This document shows, in pieces, positions 2,143 to 47,668 of a stretch of 64,000 nucleotides of DNA; position 1 is the stretch's first letter, and each line of letters begins with the position of its first letter. The position numbers and the translations under genes were made by a program. The stretch is from contig OY759746.1 of NCBI GenBank assembly GCA_963662795.1, forward strand, positions 1,920,001-1,984,000, written 5' to 3'. The notes under the pieces are model-generated. The model made no database searches. It was not told where the DNA came from and worked only from the letters and a program-made list of their open reading frames with translations. The stretch is from Spirochaetia bacterium. GTDB taxonomy: Bacteria > Spirochaetota > Spirochaetia > CADAEX01.

Positions 2143-2394
2143 GTCCAGCCTTGGCTCCACCGTGCGGCCTGGACAAGAAGCCTGGCCACTACGTATAACA
2201 GCGAATGACCGGTTCCGGCTGTTTCTAAGAAAGCAGCCTCCACCCAAATTGCCAAAATAATTCATATTAAGAATAATGGAATAAGGATAAACTTTTGGAG
2301 TGAGAAACATTATCGGCAACTTCGGTCATTCGCGGGACGTTATAAGCAATGTTCCCGCAAGAAGGGACCGCCCGGACCTCCGGCCGACGGGCGA
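2143..2394 (+). repeat. Composite repeat R2 (arm A | arm B)
   Basis: TAAC 2196-2199, GTT 2339. Confidence 0.9.
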
Positions 2395-2440
2395 GGATAT
2401 GCAATATAATAATATATGTTATGTATATTTAGGGGAAAAA

Positions 2441-3883
2441 ATGAGTTATATAAGAAATGAAATAATAGATGAAGAAATTAATAATCATTATAAACCGCCA
2501 ATAATTACTGCTTCTGCTCAATCATTGCCTTTCAATAATATTGGTGATCGCGGATTTGAAATATTGATATATCGAATATTTAAAAATACTGATTATTTTA
2601 AGAAACAAATTCAATATGATAGAGTTGAACTGATGGAAGGAACTGCTGATAGAGGTAGAGATGTATGCCTTATTGATGAGCATAATAAGGTAAAAGGTGT
2701 TATTCAATGTAAAAACTATCAAGAAAAAATTACTAAACCCAAATTAATTAAAGAGATATTAAAGTTTTTAATATTTATAATTATTTCTGATGAAGAATAT
2801 TCCCTTTCCAATTATTTTATTGTTTCTCCTTCTGGAATTAATTCAAAAGCTAAAGATCTGATTAGAAATTTTTGTCAAAATATCAAAGTTGAGCCAATTG
2901 AAAAATATTTTAATGATTTAAAGGAAGAGTTTTCTTCATTTGAAGATTTAATATATACCAATTTAAAAGAAAAAATTAATGAAATGCTTGAGACAATTTC
3001 TGTAACTGAAATCAATGGTATTGATTTGACAGAAATATTATATAAATATCCAGATAATTTGGAAAATCATTTCAAGGTAGTTAATGTAGTCTCTATTAAA
3101 AAAAATGAAGAAATGCTTGATAACAAATTGAGAGAATTTGGATTAAAAACTTTGACTGATAATGATCTTCAGTTAATTCAAAAAAGAATTGGATTTCTTC
3201 CTGAAAATAAAAGATTTAGATTTATGAACGTAGACTTTTATGGTTTACCAGAAAATCTAATTGTTAAAAATAAAAGTAAGATGATTCCAGTAATTGAAAA
3301 ATTGATAAAAGTACAAGGTGATTTATCAAAAATACTTTTAGATTATATTAATAATGAGATACATGATCAGATATTTAATAGAATAACATTACCATATCTG
3401 ACCACTGGGAAAGTACATCCATTTTCAGTACAAGTTGCAAGTCCGTATATATATAAACTATCTTCAACAGCTTTATTGTCTAAGCAAATTCCGATTGATT
3501 TAGCAAAAAAAATGTATTCCAAAATACTAGAAAATAGAGAAAAATTGATTGAAGAAATTGAGAGAGAAATATTTGAAGTAGCAAAGAAATCGTTTCAAAA
3601 TGATTATTCAACGTTGAAAGGTACAGAAGCTTTAATTAAATACAAAATTAATGTGTTGAAAACTCATTTATTAAAAGGATTCATAAATATTGAAGACGTA
3701 GAAATTCAATACAAAAAGGACAAAGAGACTATACTGCCTATTATGAATGAAATCTATGAATATATTTATGAATCAATAGTGTCTCCTTTAACAATTGTTC
3801 TTCATGAAATATCCGTTTGGGAAGAACCAGACTTTCTAAATAAGGTTGCATCGGATAATAAGAAATTAAAAGACAATACATAA
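2441..3883 (+). CDS. Restriction-endonuclease-like (Mrr/PD-(D/E)xK) domain protein
   Basis: FEIL...DRGRD...IQCK motif; likely start ATG 2441 after AGGGG RBS (the ORF-track start runs into the repeat). Confidence 0.7.
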   Translation: MSYIRNEIIDEEINNHYKPPIITASAQSLPFNNIGDRGFEILIYRIFKNTDYFKKQIQYDRVELMEGTADRGRDVCLIDEHNKVKGVIQCKNYQEKITKPKLIKEILKFLIFIIISDEEYSLSNYFIVSPSGINSKAKDLIRNFCQNIKVEPIEKYFNDLKEEFSSFEDLIYTNLKEKINEMLETISVTEINGIDLTEILYKYPDNLENHFKVVNVVSIKKNEEMLDNKLREFGLKTLTDNDLQLIQKRIGFLPENKRFRFMNVDFYGLPENLIVKNKSKMIPVIEKLIKVQGDLSKILLDYINNEIHDQIFNRITLPYLTTGKVHPFSVQVASPYIYKLSSTALLSKQIPIDLAKKMYSKILENREKLIEEIEREIFEVAKKSFQNDYSTLKGTEALIKYKINVLKTHLLKGFINIEDVEIQYKKDKETILPIMNEIYEYIYESIVSPLTIVLHEISVWEEPDFLNKVASDNKKLKDNT

Positions 3884-3945
3884 CAATTACATTCAACTGA
3901 ATATTTTATTTGTACAGGTAGAGTAATTACCTGAAAGTTTGAGAA

Positions 3946-4236
3946 GTCCAGCCTTGGCTCCGCCGTACGGCTTGAACAAGAAGCGGGAACACTGCTTATA
4001 ACAGCGATTATTTCGCTGCGCTCCCTATGGTCGCTTGGGCTCCTGCCAGTTGAGCTGGCAGATCGCCATATTTTGTTTTCATTAAACCAGAATAATTATT
4101 GTTAGATTCTTTTCAAGTCTGAAAAAGTCAAATAAAAGTATTTTAGAGTTTAGTCCCAAAACATCGAATAATCGCGGGACGTTCTCCGAAATACCGCCCT
4201 AAGAGAACGCCGCCCGGACCTTTGGCCGACGGGCGA
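3946..4236 (+). repeat. Composite repeat R3 (arm B | arm C)
   Basis: TAAC 3999-4002, GTT 4181. Confidence 0.9.
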
Positions 4237-13093: not shown

Positions 13094-13169
13094 GGATGTA
13101 GTGCAATATGAAAAATGTACAGTATAATAATATATGTTAGGCGCAAATCATGTATCATGGAATACAATT

Positions 13170-14489
13170 TTAATGAAAAACAATACCATCTTTTTCTGAC
13201 AGTTTGAGGAGAATCACAGTGATGATTAGCCCAATGACTTCTGCAATTCCTACAGTAAACCAAATAATTGAATCTCCAAATAATACTGGTAATAGAGTGA
13301 TTGAAATAGGGGTTAGAACTAGAGATCTAATACAAACTGATATAACAGCATATTTTGTTCGTTTTGTGGAATAGAGATAAGTTGAAATCATCAAATTTAA
13401 TGAAAGAACAATATAAGCCCAGCTAAATTTGGGTAGTGCTTCAATTGTAATTTGAAGAAGGAAGTTGTCAGAATTAAAAAGTGGGATAATTTTGCTTTTA
13501 AAAGTTACCAACAATAGAAAAACTATTGCTGCACTTAGAAAGTTGATCAACATACCAGAATGGAAATAAAATTTGAGATCTTTTTCATTTTTACGACCAT
13601 AGCTTTGTCCGATTAATGGCTGCAACCCTTCAGATATTCCAAAGAAGATACCTATTGAAAATGATGTCAAAAAGGAAATAATTGAAAAAGCTGAAACAGC
13701 ATTATCACTAAGCGTTTTTATCAATATGTAATTCATACACAAAATTAACACTGGCATTCCAAATTGTGAGATCATTTCTGGCAACCCACGCATTAATACT
13801 TTTTTAAAGAGTAAAATTGATACAGAGAATCTTTTGATTCTCAAATTTCCCCGATTTAGGGCAAAATGGCTTAACAGAATTACAAGAGTACCAATTTGTC
13901 CCACCCCTGATGCAATAGCCGCTCCTTTGACTCCCATTTGCAAAGGAAATATGAATAGCCAATCTAGGGCAATATTCATTATGGTACCAATAATGACAGC
14001 AATGCTGACTAGTATCGGAGCGCCGTCATTCCGCACGAATCCTTGAAGGATTATAGAAATAATTGCTGGAAGGAAGAAAGCGCTGACAAAGAAAATGTAT
14101 TCGGATGTCATATCATGGAAAGTTTCGTTAGCGGCACTTAACGTTGCGATTTGATTGGAAAAGACCATACCCAGAATCATGATGATAACTGATATCATAA
14201 ATGATGCTGAAGTAGCGTGCATGAAAGCACTATTTGCCCCTTCAACATCGTTACGCCCAAGTCGTATTGCTGTAATGGTGATGCCGCCGATAGTCAACAG
14301 TATAGCAATGGCATTTGCCATAAGAGTGTATGGTAGTGCTAGGTTGACTGCACCTAAAGCAACGGCTCCAACACCGCGTCCAACAAAGATGCCGTCAACA
14401 ATGATATAAAGGAAAACAGAGCATGAACCAGCGACTGTAGGGATAATGTAACGGAACATGTTTCGAGTTCTAACGTTAATTTTCTTCAT
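13170..14489 (-). CDS. MATE family efflux transporter
   Basis: ~12 TM; VDGIFVGRG, NIALD..FIF...GVKGAAIAS and QPLIGQSYG motifs. Confidence 0.9.
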   Translation of the reverse strand: MKKINVRTRNMFRYIIPTVAGSCSVFLYIIVDGIFVGRGVGAVALGAVNLALPYTLMANAIAILLTIGGITITAIRLGRNDVEGANSAFMHATSASFMISVIIMILGMVFSNQIATLSAANETFHDMTSEYIFFVSAFFLPAIISIILQGFVRNDGAPILVSIAVIIGTIMNIALDWLFIFPLQMGVKGAAIASGVGQIGTLVILLSHFALNRGNLRIKRFSVSILLFKKVLMRGLPEMISQFGMPVLILCMNYILIKTLSDNAVSAFSIISFLTSFSIGIFFGISEGLQPLIGQSYGRKNEKDLKFYFHSGMLINFLSAAIVFLLLVTFKSKIIPLFNSDNFLLQITIEALPKFSWAYIVLSLNLMISTYLYSTKRTKYAVISVCIRSLVLTPISITLLPVLFGDSIIWFTVGIAEVIGLIITVILLKLSEKDGIVFH

Positions 14490-14491
14490 TT

Positions 14492-14947
14492 TTATTCTGC
14501 CTTACAAAGGATGGTTCTTGATTTTTCACGAAATATTTTCAAAAAATTCCGAAGAGATTGCAGCATTGCAATTCGATCTGCATCGCTCATTTCCATTAAA
14601 GTAGATTCTTCCAGTTGAAATATGATATCAAAGATTTTACTGGCAAAGATGCGACCGGATTCGGTCAATACGATTCTTTTACTCCGGTGGTCGCTTGTAG
14701 ATATCTCCAAAAAAATAAGTCTTTTCTTTATGAGTTCTTGCAGTGCGCTATTTACAGTTTGCTTGCTCATGGACCATTGGTCACATATATTTTTCTGACT
14801 GCAATAATCATCAGATTCATAGAGTGCATATAACACCCAATAACTACTGTCCGAGAGATTGCTTTGGCTTGCTAACTTTCTGTATATTGCGTCAGTCTCT
14901 TTCCAGAGAGAATTAAATTCATAAAGCTGGTCATGTAGTGTAGCCAT
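14492..14947 (-). CDS. MarR family transcriptional regulator
   Basis: SQKNIC...SKQTVNSAL...DHRSKRIVLTESG winged HTH. Confidence 0.9.
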   Translation of the reverse strand: MATLHDQLYEFNSLWKETDAIYRKLASQSNLSDSSYWVLYALYESDDYCSQKNICDQWSMSKQTVNSALQELIKKRLIFLEISTSDHRSKRIVLTESGRIFASKIFDIIFQLEESTLMEMSDADRIAMLQSLRNFLKIFREKSRTILCKAE

Positions 14948-15042
14948 ATATCCTCTTTGCCAATAATAGTCCGAAATAAGACCAATATAAAGACTTTTAT
15001 TTAACTAGTCAATAGGCAAATAAAAGAGAATAAAGAAAGTAA

Positions 15043-21426: not shown

Positions 21427-21505
21427 GGAAATTGTCCAATTACTGCTTCAATAGAGTCAACACTTTGCTTTTTATAGGTTAAGAAAGTATTAAAAAGAAA
21501 AGGAA

Positions 21506-27801: not shown

Positions 27802-28054
27802 GTCCGGCCTTGGCTCCGCCGTGCGGCCTGGACAAGAAGTGGGGGCACTGGTGGATAACAGCGGTTAAAGCGCTTCGCTCGGATTACCTCGCTTGACCTT
27901 CGGTATAAAGGCGCAAAAAAAAATTGATAAGTTCTATGAAAGTAATTAAAACTTGTTGGTTTAAAATAAAAAACGCCTTCATCGCTTAACCGCGGGACGT
28001 TATAAGCAATGTTCCCGCAAGAGAAAACCGCCCGGACCTCCGGCCGACGGGCGA
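27802..28054 (+). repeat. Composite repeat R19 (D|B)
   Basis: TAAC 27856-27859, GTT 27999. Confidence 0.9.
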
Positions 28055-28105
28055 GGATATGCAGTATAATAATATAGACCCTACAGATGTGGAGAGATAT
28101 AGTAA

Positions 28106-28663
28106 TTGGTAAGAGTATTTATTGATAATAATGTTTGGGATATTTTTTATCAGTATTCTTTAGATTTAAATAGTGAGTTACCAATAAATGAATTTGATAT
28201 TATAATAACAAAAGAAGCGGAATTTGAAATTAAAGGAATGCCTGATAAGAAAAAGAAATATGCTGAATATCAAATAAAAAATCGTAATATAAGAACTGAT
28301 AAATTATTTGGATTTTTTAATGAGAATTATTTACTAAGTGAGCAACGAGTTGGTGGATATAGTACTTATGATAACAAGGTTGTTGGAGGAAGATTTATAA
28401 AAGATGATGAGTTTAAAATTATAAAAGAAGAAAGAAACGCATTAGGAAGTAAAAAGAAAAAAACGGGGCTTTATAATAATGAAGCAGATATAGCAATAGC
28501 TGCAAGATCATTAAATTCTATAGTATTGACTTGTGATAATAGAAAAGTACTTAAAAGAGCAAAAAATCGAAAAGGTTCAATGGTAATAGATTTAAGTGGA
28601 TTTAATAATACAATAACAATAAGGCAAATAATTTCTGAATTTATGAAAAAATATTTTAACTAA
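28106..28663 (+). CDS. PIN-like domain protein
   Basis: VFIDNNV...E...ADIAIAA...LTCD acidic pattern. Confidence 0.55.
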   Translation: MVRVFIDNNVWDIFYQYSLDLNSELPINEFDIIITKEAEFEIKGMPDKKKKYAEYQIKNRNIRTDKLFGFFNENYLLSEQRVGGYSTYDNKVVGGRFIKDDEFKIIKEERNALGSKKKKTGLYNNEADIAIAARSLNSIVLTCDNRKVLKRAKNRKGSMVIDLSGFNNTITIRQIISEFMKKYFN

Positions 28664-28779
28664 AAACTATATCAACCTGACATTCTCTTTGACATGATTT
28701 GTGCTGTTGCTACACTCGTGACATACAAATCCTGCAAAGCCTTGCAGGCTAGGAAATGCAGGTTATCTAAATGTTAAAA
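28658..28779 (+). repeat. Degenerate canonical attC (second family) nested in cassette
   Basis: TAAA(<TAAC)..CAACCTG...CAGGTTA..AATGTTA; similar to 35203-35330. Confidence 0.7.
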
Positions 28780-28824
28780 TTGTAAATTACAAATAATTAA
28801 ATAATTGTTTGAAAATGAAAGGAA

Positions 28825-29097
28825 GTCCGGCCTTGGCTCCGCCGTACGGCCTGGACAAGAAGCGGGAACACTGCTTATAACAGCGGTTCAAGCGCTTCGC
28901 TCGGAGTACCTCGCTTGGCCTACGGCAAACATCGTAGGATTTAAACAATAACTTTTTGAAACAACAAGTTTTTAAAAGACAATGAATAAAAGTATTGTGT
29001 TTACAATTCTTGATCTACGATGCTTCGCTTAACCGCGGGACGTTATAAGCAATGTTCCCGCAAGAGGAAATCGCCCGGACCTCCGGCCGACGGGCGA
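28825..29097 (+). repeat. Composite repeat R20 (B|B)
   Basis: TAAC 28878-28881, GTT 29042. Confidence 0.9.
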
Positions 29098-32273: not shown

Positions 32274-32516
32274 GTCCGGCCTTGGCGGTGCCGTGCGGCC
32301 TGGACAAGAAGGGGTCGTACTGCATATAACAGCGGGTAAAACACTGCGCTCGCCGTAGCTCGCTTGGGCTCCGCCAAACATCGCAGCTGAAAATAAAAGT
32401 AAAAGAACAAAACAGTTTTTGCTGAAGTATTCAGAAATTGCGATGCTTCGTTTACCCGCGGGACGTTAGCAGCAATGCCCCCGCCAAGAAAGAGGTGCGT
32501 GCCGTCCTGGCACGCA
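32274..32516 (+). repeat. Composite repeat R22 (F|G; variant hairpin B)
   Basis: TAAC 32327-32330, GTT 32465. Confidence 0.88.
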
Positions 32517-32627
32517 AGGAAACAGTGAAGTGCTGGTTCATTTATGAAACTGTAGATGTGTAAAATTGGAATTGCTGAGAAAAGGTTTGCAAACAGTATT
32601 TGAGAAACTTTAAACAATTAAATGTTC

Positions 32628-32660
32628 TTGCTTATAGTATAAACATAGTATATACTATAA
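32628..32660 (+). promoter_or_regulatory. mazEF promoter/operator
   Basis: TTGCTT-17-TATACT with palindrome ATAGTATATACTAT. Confidence 0.6.
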
Positions 32661-32676
32661 ATAGAGGTTAAGCTTT

Positions 32677-32913
32677 ATGGAAACTGTAATTAAGAAATGG
32701 GGAAACAGTCTGGGCGTAAGAATACCAGGTTTTATAGTAAAAGATTTATCCTTAAAAGACGGCTCATTTGTAGAAATTGAGAAAGAGGAAGATAAAATAG
32801 TCATAAAACAAAAGAATAAAATTAATTTAAAGGAAATGCTCAAGAACATAGATATTAATAATCTTCATGGCGAAATAGAAACAGAAGGTCCAGAGGGAAA
32901 AGAAATATGGTAA
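32677..32913 (+). CDS. mazE: MazE/AbrB antitoxin
   Basis: KKWGNSLGVRIP. Confidence 0.92.
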   Translation: METVIKKWGNSLGVRIPGFIVKDLSLKDGSFVEIEKEEDKIVIKQKNKINLKEMLKNIDINNLHGEIETEGPEGKEIW

Positions 32914-33248
32914 AGAAAGACTATGTTCCGGAAAGAGGAGATATTATCTGGTTAGACTTTCCACCACAATCAGGGCCTGAACAGAGGGGGAAAAGACCAG
33001 CAATTGTAATATCACCTAAGGAATATAATGAAAAAGTAGGACTTGGAATATTCTGCCCTATAACCAGTAAAGAAAAGGGTTATCCATTTGAAGTGAAGAT
33101 AGAAAGCAGGAAAATAGACGGAGTAATACTATCGGATCAGCTTAAAAGTCTTGATTGGAAAAGCAGGAATGCTGAGTTTATAGTAAAAGCAAAAAAAGAA
33201 GAAATGAAAGAAGTGATAGATAAAATCAGTGTATTGATATTTGAATAA
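32907..33248 (+). CDS. mazF: MazF endoribonuclease toxin
   Basis: YVPERGDIIWLDF..EQRGKRPA...CPITS...DQLKSLDW. Confidence 0.95.
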   Translation: MVKKDYVPERGDIIWLDFPPQSGPEQRGKRPAIVISPKEYNEKVGLGIFCPITSKEKGYPFEVKIESRKIDGVILSDQLKSLDWKSRNAEFIVKAKKEEMKEVIDKISVLIFE

Positions 33249-33264
33249 AGATCCCGGAATAAGA

Positions 33265-33556
33265 AATCAATCTGCCGTCCATGGCAGCTTGATTAAGGCG
33301 GGGGTCACTGCTGCTAACAGAGGATAATTCGCTGCGCTCGGAGTACCTCGCTTGGCCTGCGGCATATTTTGCTATCATTAAAACAGTTCAAATTATGTTT
33401 TTACTATATTTAAATGTATTCCCTAAAAGTATTATGTTGAAAAAGGTTTTAGCAAAACATCGCTTATCCTCGAGACGTTATGCGAAAGGCTGGCCGAAGA
33501 GGAATAGGCTGGGGGCGGGGGAGGGGAAGACGCCGCCGCACATCGTGTGCGCCGAA
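33265..33556 (+). repeat. Composite repeat R23 (G|H; variant hairpins)
   Basis: TAAC 33315-33318, GTT 33477. Confidence 0.85.
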
Positions 33557-33736
33557 GAAAAATTAATAAACTGTGATTTTTATAATCTGTAAGAGTGTTT
33601 GTATAAATTGCCATTATAAAAGCAGAAAAAATGAAAATATAATTTTATTTTAGCAGTTCCTTTCGTTTCATTTGATTATGGATTGGTTAATAAACAAAAA
33701 AAAATAAATCGCATAAAATGTAATATATTCTTGTAA

Positions 33737-33874
33737 ATGAAAATTATTTGGGATAAAGGTGAAAATAAAACTCTTAAGCTTGAAAGATGTATTTCTTTCA
33801 AGATATTTGCGGATTTGATTCTGGGGCTAGTTATAAAGTTAATTTGCAAAATATTAACCTTGGAATATAGCTGA
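33737..33874 (+). pseudogene. 45-codon BrnT-like toxin remnant in nearly ORF-less cassette (copy 1)
   Basis: MKIIWDKGENKTLKLERCISF resembles the BrnT N-terminus (WD..KN..N...GISF). Confidence 0.5.
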
Positions 33875-33889
33875 TTATGATAATTTTCA

Positions 33890-34155
33890 CCGTCTCACAC
33901 TTCCATGTGTTCGACGAAAACCGCCCCAGCCAAGAAGAGCCGGCCAGCCCATCGCATAACAGCGAATGGCCGGTTCCTGCTGTTTCTAAGGAAACAGCCT
34001 CCACCCAAATTGCCGAAATAATTCATGTTAAGAATAATGGAATAGAGTATAAACTTTTGGAGTAAAAAACACCATCGGCAACTTCGGTCATTCGCGAGAC
34101 GTTATCCACAATATCATCGCAAGAGGCATCGCCCGGACCTCCGGCCAACGGGCGA
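33890..34155 (+). repeat. Composite repeat R24 (H|I)
   Basis: TAAC 33957-33960, GTT 34101. Confidence 0.88.
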
Positions 34156-34164
34156 AGAAAATAG

Positions 34165-34230
34165 AATTTGCTGTATAATATACTTTATACATAACATATA
34201 TAGTTTTCTATTTATTTAATATGTTAGAAA
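34165..34230 (+). other. Internal attI-like site (copy 2) preceded by TATAAT
   Basis: TAGTTTTCTATTTATTTAATATG|TTAGAAA; GTTAGAAA 34223 matches TTTCTAAC 35202. Confidence 0.65.
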
Positions 34231-35202: not shown

Positions 35203-35330
35203 TTCTAACAACTGCTTCAGCCTGATATTTTCTTTGTCACGATTTGTGCTAACTCGCTGCACTCGTCTTACGCACAAATCGCGCCAATCCGCTACGCGGC
35301 GCGAAAATACAGGTTAAGCAAATGTTAGAC
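35203..35330 (+). repeat. Canonical attC nested in cassette
   Basis: TTCTAAC AACTGCTTCAGCCTG...CAGGTTAAGCAAAT GTTAGAC. Confidence 0.85.
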
Positions 35331-44576: not shown

Positions 44577-44845
44577 GTCCGGCCTTGGCTCCGCCGTGCG
44601 GCCTGGACAAGAAGGGGACGTACTGCTACTAACAGAGGATAATTCGCTGCGCTCGGAGTACCTCGCTTGGCCTTCGGCATATTTTACTTTCACTTAATCC
44701 AGACAATTTGTGTTTTATCCTTTTTAATGGAAAAAAACAGGAAACGGTTTATAAAGTTTGAGCCGTAAAACATCGCTTATCCTCGGGACGTTATCCACAA
44801 TATCATCGCAAGAGAACACCGCCCGGACCTCCGGCCAACGGGCGA
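44577..44845 (+). repeat. Composite repeat R30 (J|I)
   Basis: TAAC 44630-44633, GTT 44790. Confidence 0.9.
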
Positions 44846-44914
44846 AGAAAATAGAATCTACTGTTTAAAATACTTTGAACATAATAAAATGTATAGTTAT
44901 TTAATATTTTATCT

Positions 44915-45234
44915 TAATCGCTGTTGCGGTAGAAAAAATTATCTGGATAATTAAACAAATACACGAAATAATTTCGGAAATATTTAGCTTAAAGAGTTAT
45001 ACGATTATAACGCAAGGTATTAATTGTATTGAAACAAAAGATATAGAAGAAATTACAGCTAATAATTACTTATCATTCCCTAGTATATCAGCTCCCTTTA
45101 CAGAATTATTTGATATAGAGGAAGCAGTAAAGAAAAACATCAAAAATCATATACATAAACCATGTGATTTATACATTTCCGAATCAGTTTTACTTACATT
45201 AAAATACATTAATTTAAAAAAGAGATTCCTTTGA
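44915..45234 (+). pseudogene. 5'-truncated open frame abutting a damaged attI-like site
   Basis: ~105 open codons (LIAVAVEKII...KKRFL*) with no start, beginning right after TAGTTATTTAATAT. Confidence 0.4.
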
Positions 45235-45364
45235 AAATATTTATTATCAACCTAAAAGTTTTGTTCAGTCATGGAATAAATATTCACCAGTAATTATTGA
45301 AACAATTATTAATAAAATGTATCTACAGTAAGGATTTTTATCTAAATAAAAGAGAATATAAATT

Positions 45365-47227
45365 TTGAAAAATATGGATCTTCTTCAGACGAATATAACA
45401 AATGATTTATCTCGGTTAAAAAAAATAATTGATAAATATTCAACATATTCAATTGTTGGATGGTGTTTTTCCTATAATCTTTTTATAGGAAAAACAGATC
45501 GAGAAGAAGTATTACATTCTCCTGCAAAACAATTATCTTTTCTTATTGGAGTTATGCTTTCAATAAAAGAGCCTGATGATCCAAAAGAACTTGATAATAG
45601 TAAATGGGAAGAAATATTAGCGATACTTAACAAATTATTCAACCATTACTGGCTTTTATATATGCCTGAGAAAGAGAATAGTATTAATGCAGAAAAACCA
45701 ACAGAAGAATGGTTTCAAACAAGAGAAATATCATTGCAGGCATTTTTTAATTATTTTGATTCTGGATTATTAGCTTCTATTGAACAAGTTAAAGACAGAA
45801 TTATGAGATACTTACTCCCATTTGATGAAATTATAGAGCAGAAAATTGGTATTTCTTTAACTAAATCTCTAGAAATATGTGATCATATTGTAAAAAAAAT
45901 GCAAAATGTTTTAGATGAGATTTCTGTTCTTAAAATCGAAGAACAAAAAATACGTGAAGAACTTATACGAAAGCATATAGGGAAAGAATGGGCGATTGAA
46001 GAAATGAGGCGAGAGTCTTTTTCTGGGCCATATATAAGTATTGCAAGTAAACTATTTGAAAACTTAAACAAAATGGGTAGTGTTGATGCTGAAGATATTA
46101 AAAAGAAATATGGTGATTTAGGTAAAAAATACTGTGAACTGTTTATCATAGAAAGAGGACAAGGTCCAGAAATAAGATACCCAACTGATAGAAGTATTTT
46201 TGAAATTAAACCAATAATCAGTGATAAAAAAGGAAAACTATTATGCCCTGCTTCAAATTCATTGTATCTTGCATTAAACACATTAGGTGAAAAGATTATA
46301 TTAGAAAGTGAAGAAAAATCTAAATATTTACAATTGAGAGATAAATCCCTTGAAAATGAAGCACTATCAATTTTACAGGAATTAGTTAATAAAAAAGCAA
46401 CAATTCTAACATCTGTTTATGAAACACCAGATAGCCATTTTGAACATGATATTATTATTGATGATGAATTATTGACATTAATTATTGAAGCAAAAGCATC
46501 CCCTCCAATAGAACCATTTCGAGATCCTGATAAAGCTTTTATTAGAATTCGTGATGCTTTTAAATCTGATACAGGTATTCAAAAAGCTTTCGATCAAACC
46601 AAAACAATATTAAAAAAATTAGAAAAAGAAGGACAAATCAATTTATATAATAAAAAAGGAGATAAAATATACACATTAGATTATGATTCAAAAAAGTTGC
46701 AAATTGGAATATGTGTTACAAGAGATAATTTTGGGTCTTTAGCAACAGATTTATCATTATTATTAGAAAAGGAAAAAGATGATAAATATCCATGGGCTTT
46801 GAATATACTTGATTTAAAAAACTTCAAAGATGCTTGGTTATATTTAAAAAAAGGAGAAAGAGAGTTTTGTCAATTTCTAACAGAAAGAATAAAACTTCAT
46901 GGTAAAGTTTACTCTGCCGATGAACTTGAATATGCAGGTTATTTTTTTCTGCATGGTGACTTTTCATCTTTTAATACATCTGAATTTGATCGAATTCAAT
47001 TAGATCCACATTATTCTGATATCTTTAATGATATTTATTATGCACAATATCATGGTGGTCCGGCTGCTAATATTAAAGTCAAAAAGACACCAGTTTTAAC
47101 AGATTTAAGAAAATCAATAATTGAAGGAAAGCCTGTTTTTATAGATGCTAAAAAGATAAAAGTAGGAAGAAATGATAAGTGTCCTTGTGGATCGGGGAAA
47201 AAGTATAAGTTTTGTTGCGGGAGATAG
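45365..47227 (+). CDS. SEC-C motif protein with NERD/PD-(D/E)xK-like domain
   Basis: EHDIII...IIEAK; C-terminal KVGRNDKCPCGSGKKYKFCC. Confidence 0.8.
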   Translation: MKNMDLLQTNITNDLSRLKKIIDKYSTYSIVGWCFSYNLFIGKTDREEVLHSPAKQLSFLIGVMLSIKEPDDPKELDNSKWEEILAILNKLFNHYWLLYMPEKENSINAEKPTEEWFQTREISLQAFFNYFDSGLLASIEQVKDRIMRYLLPFDEIIEQKIGISLTKSLEICDHIVKKMQNVLDEISVLKIEEQKIREELIRKHIGKEWAIEEMRRESFSGPYISIASKLFENLNKMGSVDAEDIKKKYGDLGKKYCELFIIERGQGPEIRYPTDRSIFEIKPIISDKKGKLLCPASNSLYLALNTLGEKIILESEEKSKYLQLRDKSLENEALSILQELVNKKATILTSVYETPDSHFEHDIIIDDELLTLIIEAKASPPIEPFRDPDKAFIRIRDAFKSDTGIQKAFDQTKTILKKLEKEGQINLYNKKGDKIYTLDYDSKKLQIGICVTRDNFGSLATDLSLLLEKEKDDKYPWALNILDLKNFKDAWLYLKKGEREFCQFLTERIKLHGKVYSADELEYAGYFFLHGDFSSFNTSEFDRIQLDPHYSDIFNDIYYAQYHGGPAANIKVKKTPVLTDLRKSIIEGKPVFIDAKKIKVGRNDKCPCGSGKKYKFCCGR

Positions 47228-47240
47228 AACAATAAAAACC

Positions 47241-47348
47241 ATCTAACAATCAGTTGGAGAAGATTTGACTTTTATCACGGTTCTTGCTGATGCAAGAACA
47301 CGCGCCAACTCTATCGGGGTAGTCAAGCAGCTCAACTGAACGTTATAA
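47241..47348 (+). repeat. Canonical attC nested in cassette
   Basis: ATCTAAC AATCAGTTGGAG...CTCAACTGAAC GTTATAA. Confidence 0.8.
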
Positions 47349-47371
47349 AAATAAAAATGGAAAAGGGGAAA

Positions 47372-47668
47372 GTCCGGCCTTGGCGTTGCCGTGCGGCCCT
47401 GGACAAGAAGCGATGATACTGGTGGATAACAGCGGTTCAAGCGCTTCGCTCGGAGCACCTCGCTTGGCCTTCGGCAAACATCGTAGGATTTTATCTACAT
47501 AATTATAGCGTAACAAGTTTTAACAGGCGATAAATAAAAACTTTGTGTTTTTCATTCTTGGTCTACGATGCTTCGCTTAACCGCGGGGCGTTATGCGAAA
47601 GGCTGGCCGAAGAGGAATAGGCTGGGGGCGGGGGAGAGGAAGACGCCGCCGCACATCGTGTGCGCCGA
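47372..47668 (+). repeat. Composite repeat R31 (I|H)
   Basis: TAAC 47427-47430, GTT 47590. Confidence 0.88.

Follow-up and report, generated by a model that had tools for sequence, protein, structure and literature searches.

The qacEΔ1 gene in the 3′ conserved segment of class 1 integrons is a cassette gene that became fixed after its 3′ end and its attC were truncated, and the truncation came from the insertion of other DNA. In class 1 integrons, the partial loss of an attC also fuses a cassette to its neighbor, as described in the accessible part of PMC4670013. The ΔattI-type gene cassettes of mobile integrons have an attI-derived sequence inside mobile cassette units, and this sequence is active in recombination according to the accessible text of PMC12901181. 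In spirochaetes, the chromosomal integrons of Treponema have attCs of 63–132 bp, and attCs survive the loss of intI in T. phagedenis, as far as the accessible part of PMC3607928 goes. Here, I compare with these systems a shell (a unit of a long repeat array, described below) that lies at positions 2340–4181 of the window, namely the whole 64-kb stretch of DNA that was analyzed. This shell probably holds a former canonical integron cassette that was fixed as shell cargo by truncation of its attC, and I give this reading a probability of about 0.78.

The closest likeness is to the fused class 1 cassettes, in that an attC is partly lost and the gene, which is no longer excisable by itself, moves with the downstream DNA (accessible part of PMC4670013). 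The two cases differ in the downstream partner: here, instead of a second canonical cassette, there is the 3′ end of a much larger one, whose attC-like site measures ~270 nt and probably depends on a different recombinase. In contrast to qacEΔ1, the event at the 2340–4181 shell looks like a deletion, and the carrier itself is still a mobile unit. The ΔattI-type cassettes, as described in the accessible text, are single-tier structures of class 1 and class 2 integrons, while the spirochaete array has an attI-like leader inside each of ~30 carrier cassettes of a second, larger system. The Treponema integrons also belong to a spirochaete lineage and their attC sites outlast intI, whereas no giant repeats or nesting are described in the accessible part of that report (PMC3607928). 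A literature search turned up neither attC-like repeats of ~270 nt nor cassettes with attI-like sites inside them. The loss of an attC is itself already known from fused cassettes, and the unusual part would be the two-tier setting.

The window corresponds to positions 1920001–1984000 of a single-contig 3.93-Mb genome with a G+C content of 39.7%. It was found that the genome has one array at ~1,850,000–2,180,700 (330 kb), which is composed of ~183 units or shells. The left and right halves of a ~270-nt attC-like repeat alternate 182 times across the array, on the + strand throughout. Each repeat runs from a conserved hairpin (HP1) through a 20-nt arm ending in ATAAC, the dinucleotide AG, an L″-like box, 100–150 variable nucleotides, an L′-like box, and a 20-nt arm starting with GTTA to another hairpin (HP2). 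The opening and closing arms of a shell are complementary to each other at 16 or more of the 20 positions in 101 of the 135 parsed shells; 25 of the other 34 are parsing errors in which the regular expression picked a wrong 20-mer. By comparison, the two arms within a single repeat match at this level in only 39 of 99 repeats. There are at least seven arm types in the array, and they co-vary. Since the opening and closing arms pair within a shell, as expected from integron-type exchange at G|TT, the individual shell behaves like a cassette. HP2 occurs 36 times in the window and 160 times in the genome, and every copy lies inside the array. Shell-type repeats are present in 6 of the 60 relatives searched.

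The 3′ part of a shell may contain an optional element, the module hairpin ACAGGTAGAGTAATTACCTGA (21 nt, up to four mismatches allowed). The array has 24 copies, each 32–34 nt before HP1, and in many shells the module is followed by a GTT-containing consensus ~10 nt before HP1. Copies outside the array were found at nine sites on the + strand and four sites on the − strand. The copies of the module include those at window positions 3914–3934, 26510, 37255, and 54775 and at genome positions 12096, 395871, 457811, 3617603, and 3813959. Solitary halves of the shell repeat were also seen outside the array, at genome positions 450513/451514, 2344547–2344762 (− strand), 2489611–2489839 (− strand), and 3615225. 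Two variant shells, at window positions 32450–33320 and 33478–33960, have flanking hairpins unlike HP1 and HP2, while their 20-nt arms still pair. Judging from the translation only, the former carries an AbrB/MazE-like and PemK/MazF-like gene pair.

Canonical integron cassettes are nested in some of the shells. Using an nhmmer profile built from 20 attC sequences of the array, I found 28 matches to the canonical attC at E<0.05, all within shells and all on the + strand. Shells with an attC often start with a conserved ~75-nt sequence, the type I leader (for example, window 34158–34226). Among the 182 shells, the type I leader and a canonical attC occur together in 22, the leader alone in 7, the attC alone in 3, and neither in 150 (Fisher p 2.5e-19), which means that 22 of the 29 shells with a type I leader hold an attC. 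Three of the seven shells without an attC at E<0.05 have short or weak attCs. All three attC-only shells have a shorter leader, type II, which ends in …TATAATAATATAT|GTTA. The type II leader is conserved in ~20 shells (21 leaders were aligned), and the sequences diverge after GTTA. The TATAAT in the leader was not picked up by a simple sigma-70 scan, which speaks neither for nor against a promoter there. Very short canonical attCs (~36–70 nt) were seen in type I shells at genome positions 2156784–2156851, 2113821–2113920, and 2062612–2062696. Between each of them and HP1 lies the same ~25-nt trailer, similar in appearance to the right-hand portion of the attI-like site.

The crossover is set by the leader in 30 shells, and in these I searched for the reverse complement of the sequence that begins at the crossover G. 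Complements of at least 8 nt were found in 19 of these shells, every one at the start of an attC or an attC-like sequence: 16 are profile-detected attCs, one is a divergent attC recognized by eye, one is a short attC, and one belongs to the 2340–4181 shell. The remaining 11 shells have complements of 4–7 nt, which lie away from attCs. In intact nested cassettes the complement is 7–11 nt long. Since the complements of at least 8 nt all lie at attC starts, the nested capture of cassettes at leader-defined GTT sites is real, and a complement of 8–11 nt is its signature. Five other shells have a type II leader ending in GTTA (three distinct sequences) and no complement; thus, GTTA is not always an insertion mark.

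Which recombinases may act on these sites? At the head of the array lies the gene of a Xer/IntI-like tyrosine recombinase of 339 amino acids (genome 1846782–1847801). It scores 214.5 bits with the XerA-type model (cut-off 220) and 200 bits with the IntI model TIGR02249 (cut-off 265). The latter match is split (profile positions 3–172 and 230–313), with ~16 codons in the place of 57 profile positions, and the protein has neither an IntI score above the cut-off nor the IntI-specific additional domain. Its closest public relative, with 79% identity, is labelled Spirochaetia bacterium. The best TIGR02249 match in the genome, at 412371–413302, is split over two frames and has two TGA and one TAG in-frame stop codons. 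This broken canonical intI lies among IS-like genes far from the array, no profile-found attC lies near it, and no intact cognate integron integrase was found in the source genome. The type II leader has its crossover at GTT, as an attI site does, and the complement rule holds at the shells at genome positions 1851358 and 1900516 and at the 2340–4181 shell. On the other hand, it does not lie beside an intI gene: the distance to the head recombinase is ~75 kb, and the broken intI is 1.5 Mb away.

Five relatives were examined further. Four of them have an intact IntI above the cut-off, and split matches like that of the head recombinase lie at the edge of the mapped shell repeats in four of the five. 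In one relative, G011, an intact IntI adjoins a classical array whose attCs belong to the family seen here, and a shell array lies separately. One shell of the latter has a type I leader and a degraded attC, and the crossover and R′ of the nested cassette are degraded. The type I leader profile gave no match beside the G011 intI gene. The attI crossover region of G011 resembles the end of the type II leader by eye, over a short and AT-rich stretch.

The 2340–4181 shell, all of whose elements are on the + strand, opens with the R′ arm GTTATAAGCAATGTTCCCGC of the giant repeat (2339–2358; crossover after G2339). This arm is complementary, with one mismatch, to the R″ arm GCGGGAACACTGCTTATAAC at 3983–4002, which is preceded by HP1 (3945–3977) and followed by the rest of the giant repeat (L″, variable region, and L′; 4003–4181) up to the next crossover at G4181. 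Behind the opening arm come the conserved GC-rich hairpin HP2 (2369–2393) and a type II leader ending in …GGATATGCAATATAATAATATAT (2394–2417, placed by the leader alignment). As the original prediction held, GTTATGTAT at 2418–2426 matches ATACATAAC at 3876–3884, and AATTACATTCAACTGA follows the latter directly at 3885–3900. The match is a reverse complement of 9 nt, and its downstream partner lies 70 nt before HP1. GTTATGTAT stands directly after TATAATAATATAT, at the GTT where the type II leader ends, and would be the R′ remnant of a nested canonical cassette. ATACATAAC, the probable R″ box of the attC of that cassette, overlaps the end of an ORF of 480 amino acids (2441–3883), whose TAA stop codon at 3881–3883 lies inside the box. 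The next stretch, 3885–3913, appears to be what is left of a canonical attC, namely its L″ box and the base of its variable stem, and the homology ends at TTGT. The module hairpin at 3914–3934, at its usual distance from HP1, occupies the expected place of the attC 3′ half.

The similarity to an attC was assessed for the 30 nt after the AAC of the R″ box (from 3885 on). The best match, with a score of 13, is the attC at genome position 1852044 in the type II shell at 1851358. Among 412 TAAC sites of attC-free shells the highest score was 9; of 8640 trailer positions from 108 other shells, one reached 13, and of 3000 shuffles, none did. With shorter anchored stretches, the controls reached the score at 34 of 8640 positions for 16 nt (and in 6 of 2000 shuffles), at 273 of 8640 for 20 nt, and at 54 of 8640 for 24 nt. 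The final ~8 nt of this stretch (…ATTTGT) are also similar to the AT-rich sequence that flanks the module of other shells, and thus the true control frequency lies between the 30-nt figure and the shorter-stretch figures. The predicted resemblance to a truncated attC start applies to the 5′ half, and the 3′ half is absent. In terms of a canonical cassette, the nested unit retains the complement between the R″ box and the cassette start (9 nt); of the L″/L′ boxes, variable stem, and R′ box that make up a foldable bottom-strand hairpin, there is only the L″-like 5′ half. As in a fused or fixed cassette, the attC homology stops at 3913 while the shell arms at 2339–2358 and 3983–4002 are still complementary.

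The ORF at 2441–3883 most likely starts at ATG 2441, with a likely ribosome-binding site, GGGG, at 2432–2435. It encodes an LmuA-like protein with an N-terminal Mrr-type nuclease domain (Pfam Mrr_cat, E 4e-6; PADLOC LmuA, E 6e-13 over residues 38–186). The protein is nearly an orphan as judged from database searches: one homologue (352 amino acids, 52% identity) was found in a search of 5.8 billion proteins, no paralogue was found, and neither the 60 relatives nor a JGI metagenome scan gave a homologue. No copy with an intact attC was found in the 60 relatives, the 5.8-billion-protein search, or the JGI metagenome scan. Excision junctions were not found in the contigs of public sequencing runs. 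The contig joints at 2394–2400/3942–3945 were considered as excision products and rejected, as these are contigs of other shells meeting at shared repeats. Contigs of organism B cover 1500–2437 and hardly any of the ORF at 2441–3883; this was not counted as evidence.

Is the relic one stage of a common pathway? It had been proposed that intact, mutated, and truncated sites form a series in which captured cassettes lose their own attC and become permanent shell cargo. The three complete attCs named in that proposal, at 28658, 47241, and 35206, turned out to be real. The reference site, the first of two nested cassettes in the 34158 shell, lies at 35203–35329 (105 bits with the covariance model). 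The site at 28658–28778 (103 bits) is full-length and lies in the 28057 shell, which was predicted at 28000–29042 to hold a mutated attC and shares its arm type and type II leader with the 2340–4181 shell. The GTTA of its leader is missing, the attC folds more weakly than that at 35203 (−16.9 vs −31.7 kcal/mol) with the R boxes unpaired in the minimum-energy structure, and …AAAATTGTA… follows the R′ of the attC. The intact site at 47241–47347 (98 bits) lies in the 44848 shell (44791–47590 in the prediction), and damage to its attI-like site was borne out: the leader is a type I leader in which T replaces the crossover G and ~8 nt are missing. A cassette start matching the R″ box of this attC was sought in the 44848 shell and not found. 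Another site, a degenerate short attC-like sequence at 21434–21494 in a shell with a type II-like leader, scored 14.6 bits (E 0.38) with the covariance model, and its local alignment to an attC 3′ half scored 16.5, which was reached by 1 of 500 shuffles. It is possibly a second relic in the window.

A graded series can thus be assembled from the 34158 shell (intact), the 28057 shell (no GTTA, weaker attC), the 2340–4181 shell (truncated), and 21434–21494 (degenerate). It is nevertheless improbable that most ordinary shells gained their cargo from captured canonical cassettes that lost their attC. The seven type I-leader shells without an attC, including the three with short or weak ones, the five type II shells with GTTA and no attC, and the degraded crossover and R′ of the nested cassette in G011, where IntI is intact, would fit such a general route. 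However, 150 of the 182 shells have neither a type I leader nor a canonical attC, and this part of the proposal was not supported. Two scans that had been suggested for it also spoke against it. In 101 non-redundant shells with no detected attC, any GTT of the first 120 nt was compared with the final 120 nt, and the inner GTT…/…AAC pairs were near chance: 2 vs 0.30 expected for at least 9 nt, 2 vs 0.89 for at least 8 nt, and 6 vs 2.84 for at least 7 nt. Both outliers of at least 9 nt carry a leader. As for partial attCs in the other shells, the single trailer position among 8640 mentioned above is the only one that looks like an attC 5′ half. Moreover, the canonical intI is broken, and hence decay of an inner attC needs no selection.

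It is very improbable that the AT-rich leader and trailer share a 9-nt inverted pair and an attC-like stretch by accident. The G+C content of the shell interior is ~28–31%, and the 9-nt pair by itself is marginal, being ~7-fold above chance array-wide in the unconditioned scan. Once the crossover is fixed by the leader, the chance of a complement of at least 9 nt in the last 150 nt is 0.001–0.003 (4 of 3856 cross-shell pairs; 6 of 2000 shuffles). The GTT coincides exactly with the crossover that the leader defines, and the AAC falls at the stop codon, which is where attCs start. The complement and the anchored similarity are independent tests, and their joint probability, ~1e-5 to 1e-7 per shell, survives correction for the ~14 leader-bearing shells without an attC. 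The general search tools are more favorable to chance. With the 20-sequence nhmmer profile, the relic was unmatched at E≤50 in the array; on a 15-kb trailer set it scored 0.8 bits (E 1.1), or 3.7 bits (E ~1) with a model of the 5′ half. A covariance model from ten attCs, run with the filters off, gave nothing at 3876 at E≤10, yet recovered the five canonical attCs in the window (E≤1e-13). In an unanchored local alignment, 4 of 111 control trailers and 9 of 500 shuffles did as well as the relic; this is a poor test, as the matching controls aligned the A/T-rich flanks left in the attC extracts and not R″-L″.

The folding energy of the trailer at 3872–3944 is −5.3 kcal/mol (z −1.1), compared with −16.9 to −31.7 kcal/mol (z −3.1 to −6.1) for three canonical attCs. 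There is no R″/R′ or L″/L′ pairing in the trailer fold, and its sole stem is the hairpin at 3914–3934. With no foldable attC, the inner cassette would not be excisable by an integron integrase. That R″/L″, the module hairpin, and the downstream GTTTGAG together form a minimal or alternative attC still in use is scarcely credible: canonical attCs of ~36–70 nt do exist in other shells and many shells have the GTT-containing consensus after the module, but the fold lacks the required pairing, GTTTGAG is not complementary to the R″ box, and the module also occurs outside the array.

For a former cassette fixed by attC truncation, the following course may be proposed. A canonical cassette would have been inserted at the GTT that ends the conserved type II leader of the shell. 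It would have started with GTTATGTAT, carried the LmuA/Mrr-like gene, and ended with an attC of which the R″ box and ~30 nt of L″ and stem base are left. A deletion between two TTGT stretches, possibly through this microhomology, may then have removed the variable stem, L′, and R′, with the break at the TTGT that is common to the 5′ edge of the module. The remaining gene would now move solely with the shell, which has kept its own arms intact. Since the canonical intI is broken, the loss of the inner attC may be neutral decay, without selection or domestication. The degraded nested cassette of G011, a single case, hints that decay also occurs under a live integrase.

The relic provides evidence, independent of the intact cases, that classical cassettes were inserted inside the larger cassettes of a second system. 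It indicates that the larger unit can trap a gene and offers a concrete example of cargo passing between cassette systems. A bearing on how cassettes are made had also been claimed; the event rather concerns a change of carrier by an existing cassette and not the de novo origin of attC sites or cassettes. It is conceivable, although doubtful, that the array as a whole is a two-tier integron, in which the Xer-like recombinase would shuffle the giant-attC shells, some shells would carry an attI-like landing site for IntI, and truncation of an inner attC would hand genes over from IntI to the shell system. If this is true and truncation is frequent, a new class of cassettes would gain cargo without de novo attC formation.

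Another shell in the window, at 13097–15042, has a type II leader with GTTA and no R″ complement (k=5). Its genes, on the − strand, encode a 439-aa membrane protein and a 151-aa regulator-like protein. This shell is duplicated at genome position 1986161, and the identical 1947-nt interior occurs twice in the array.
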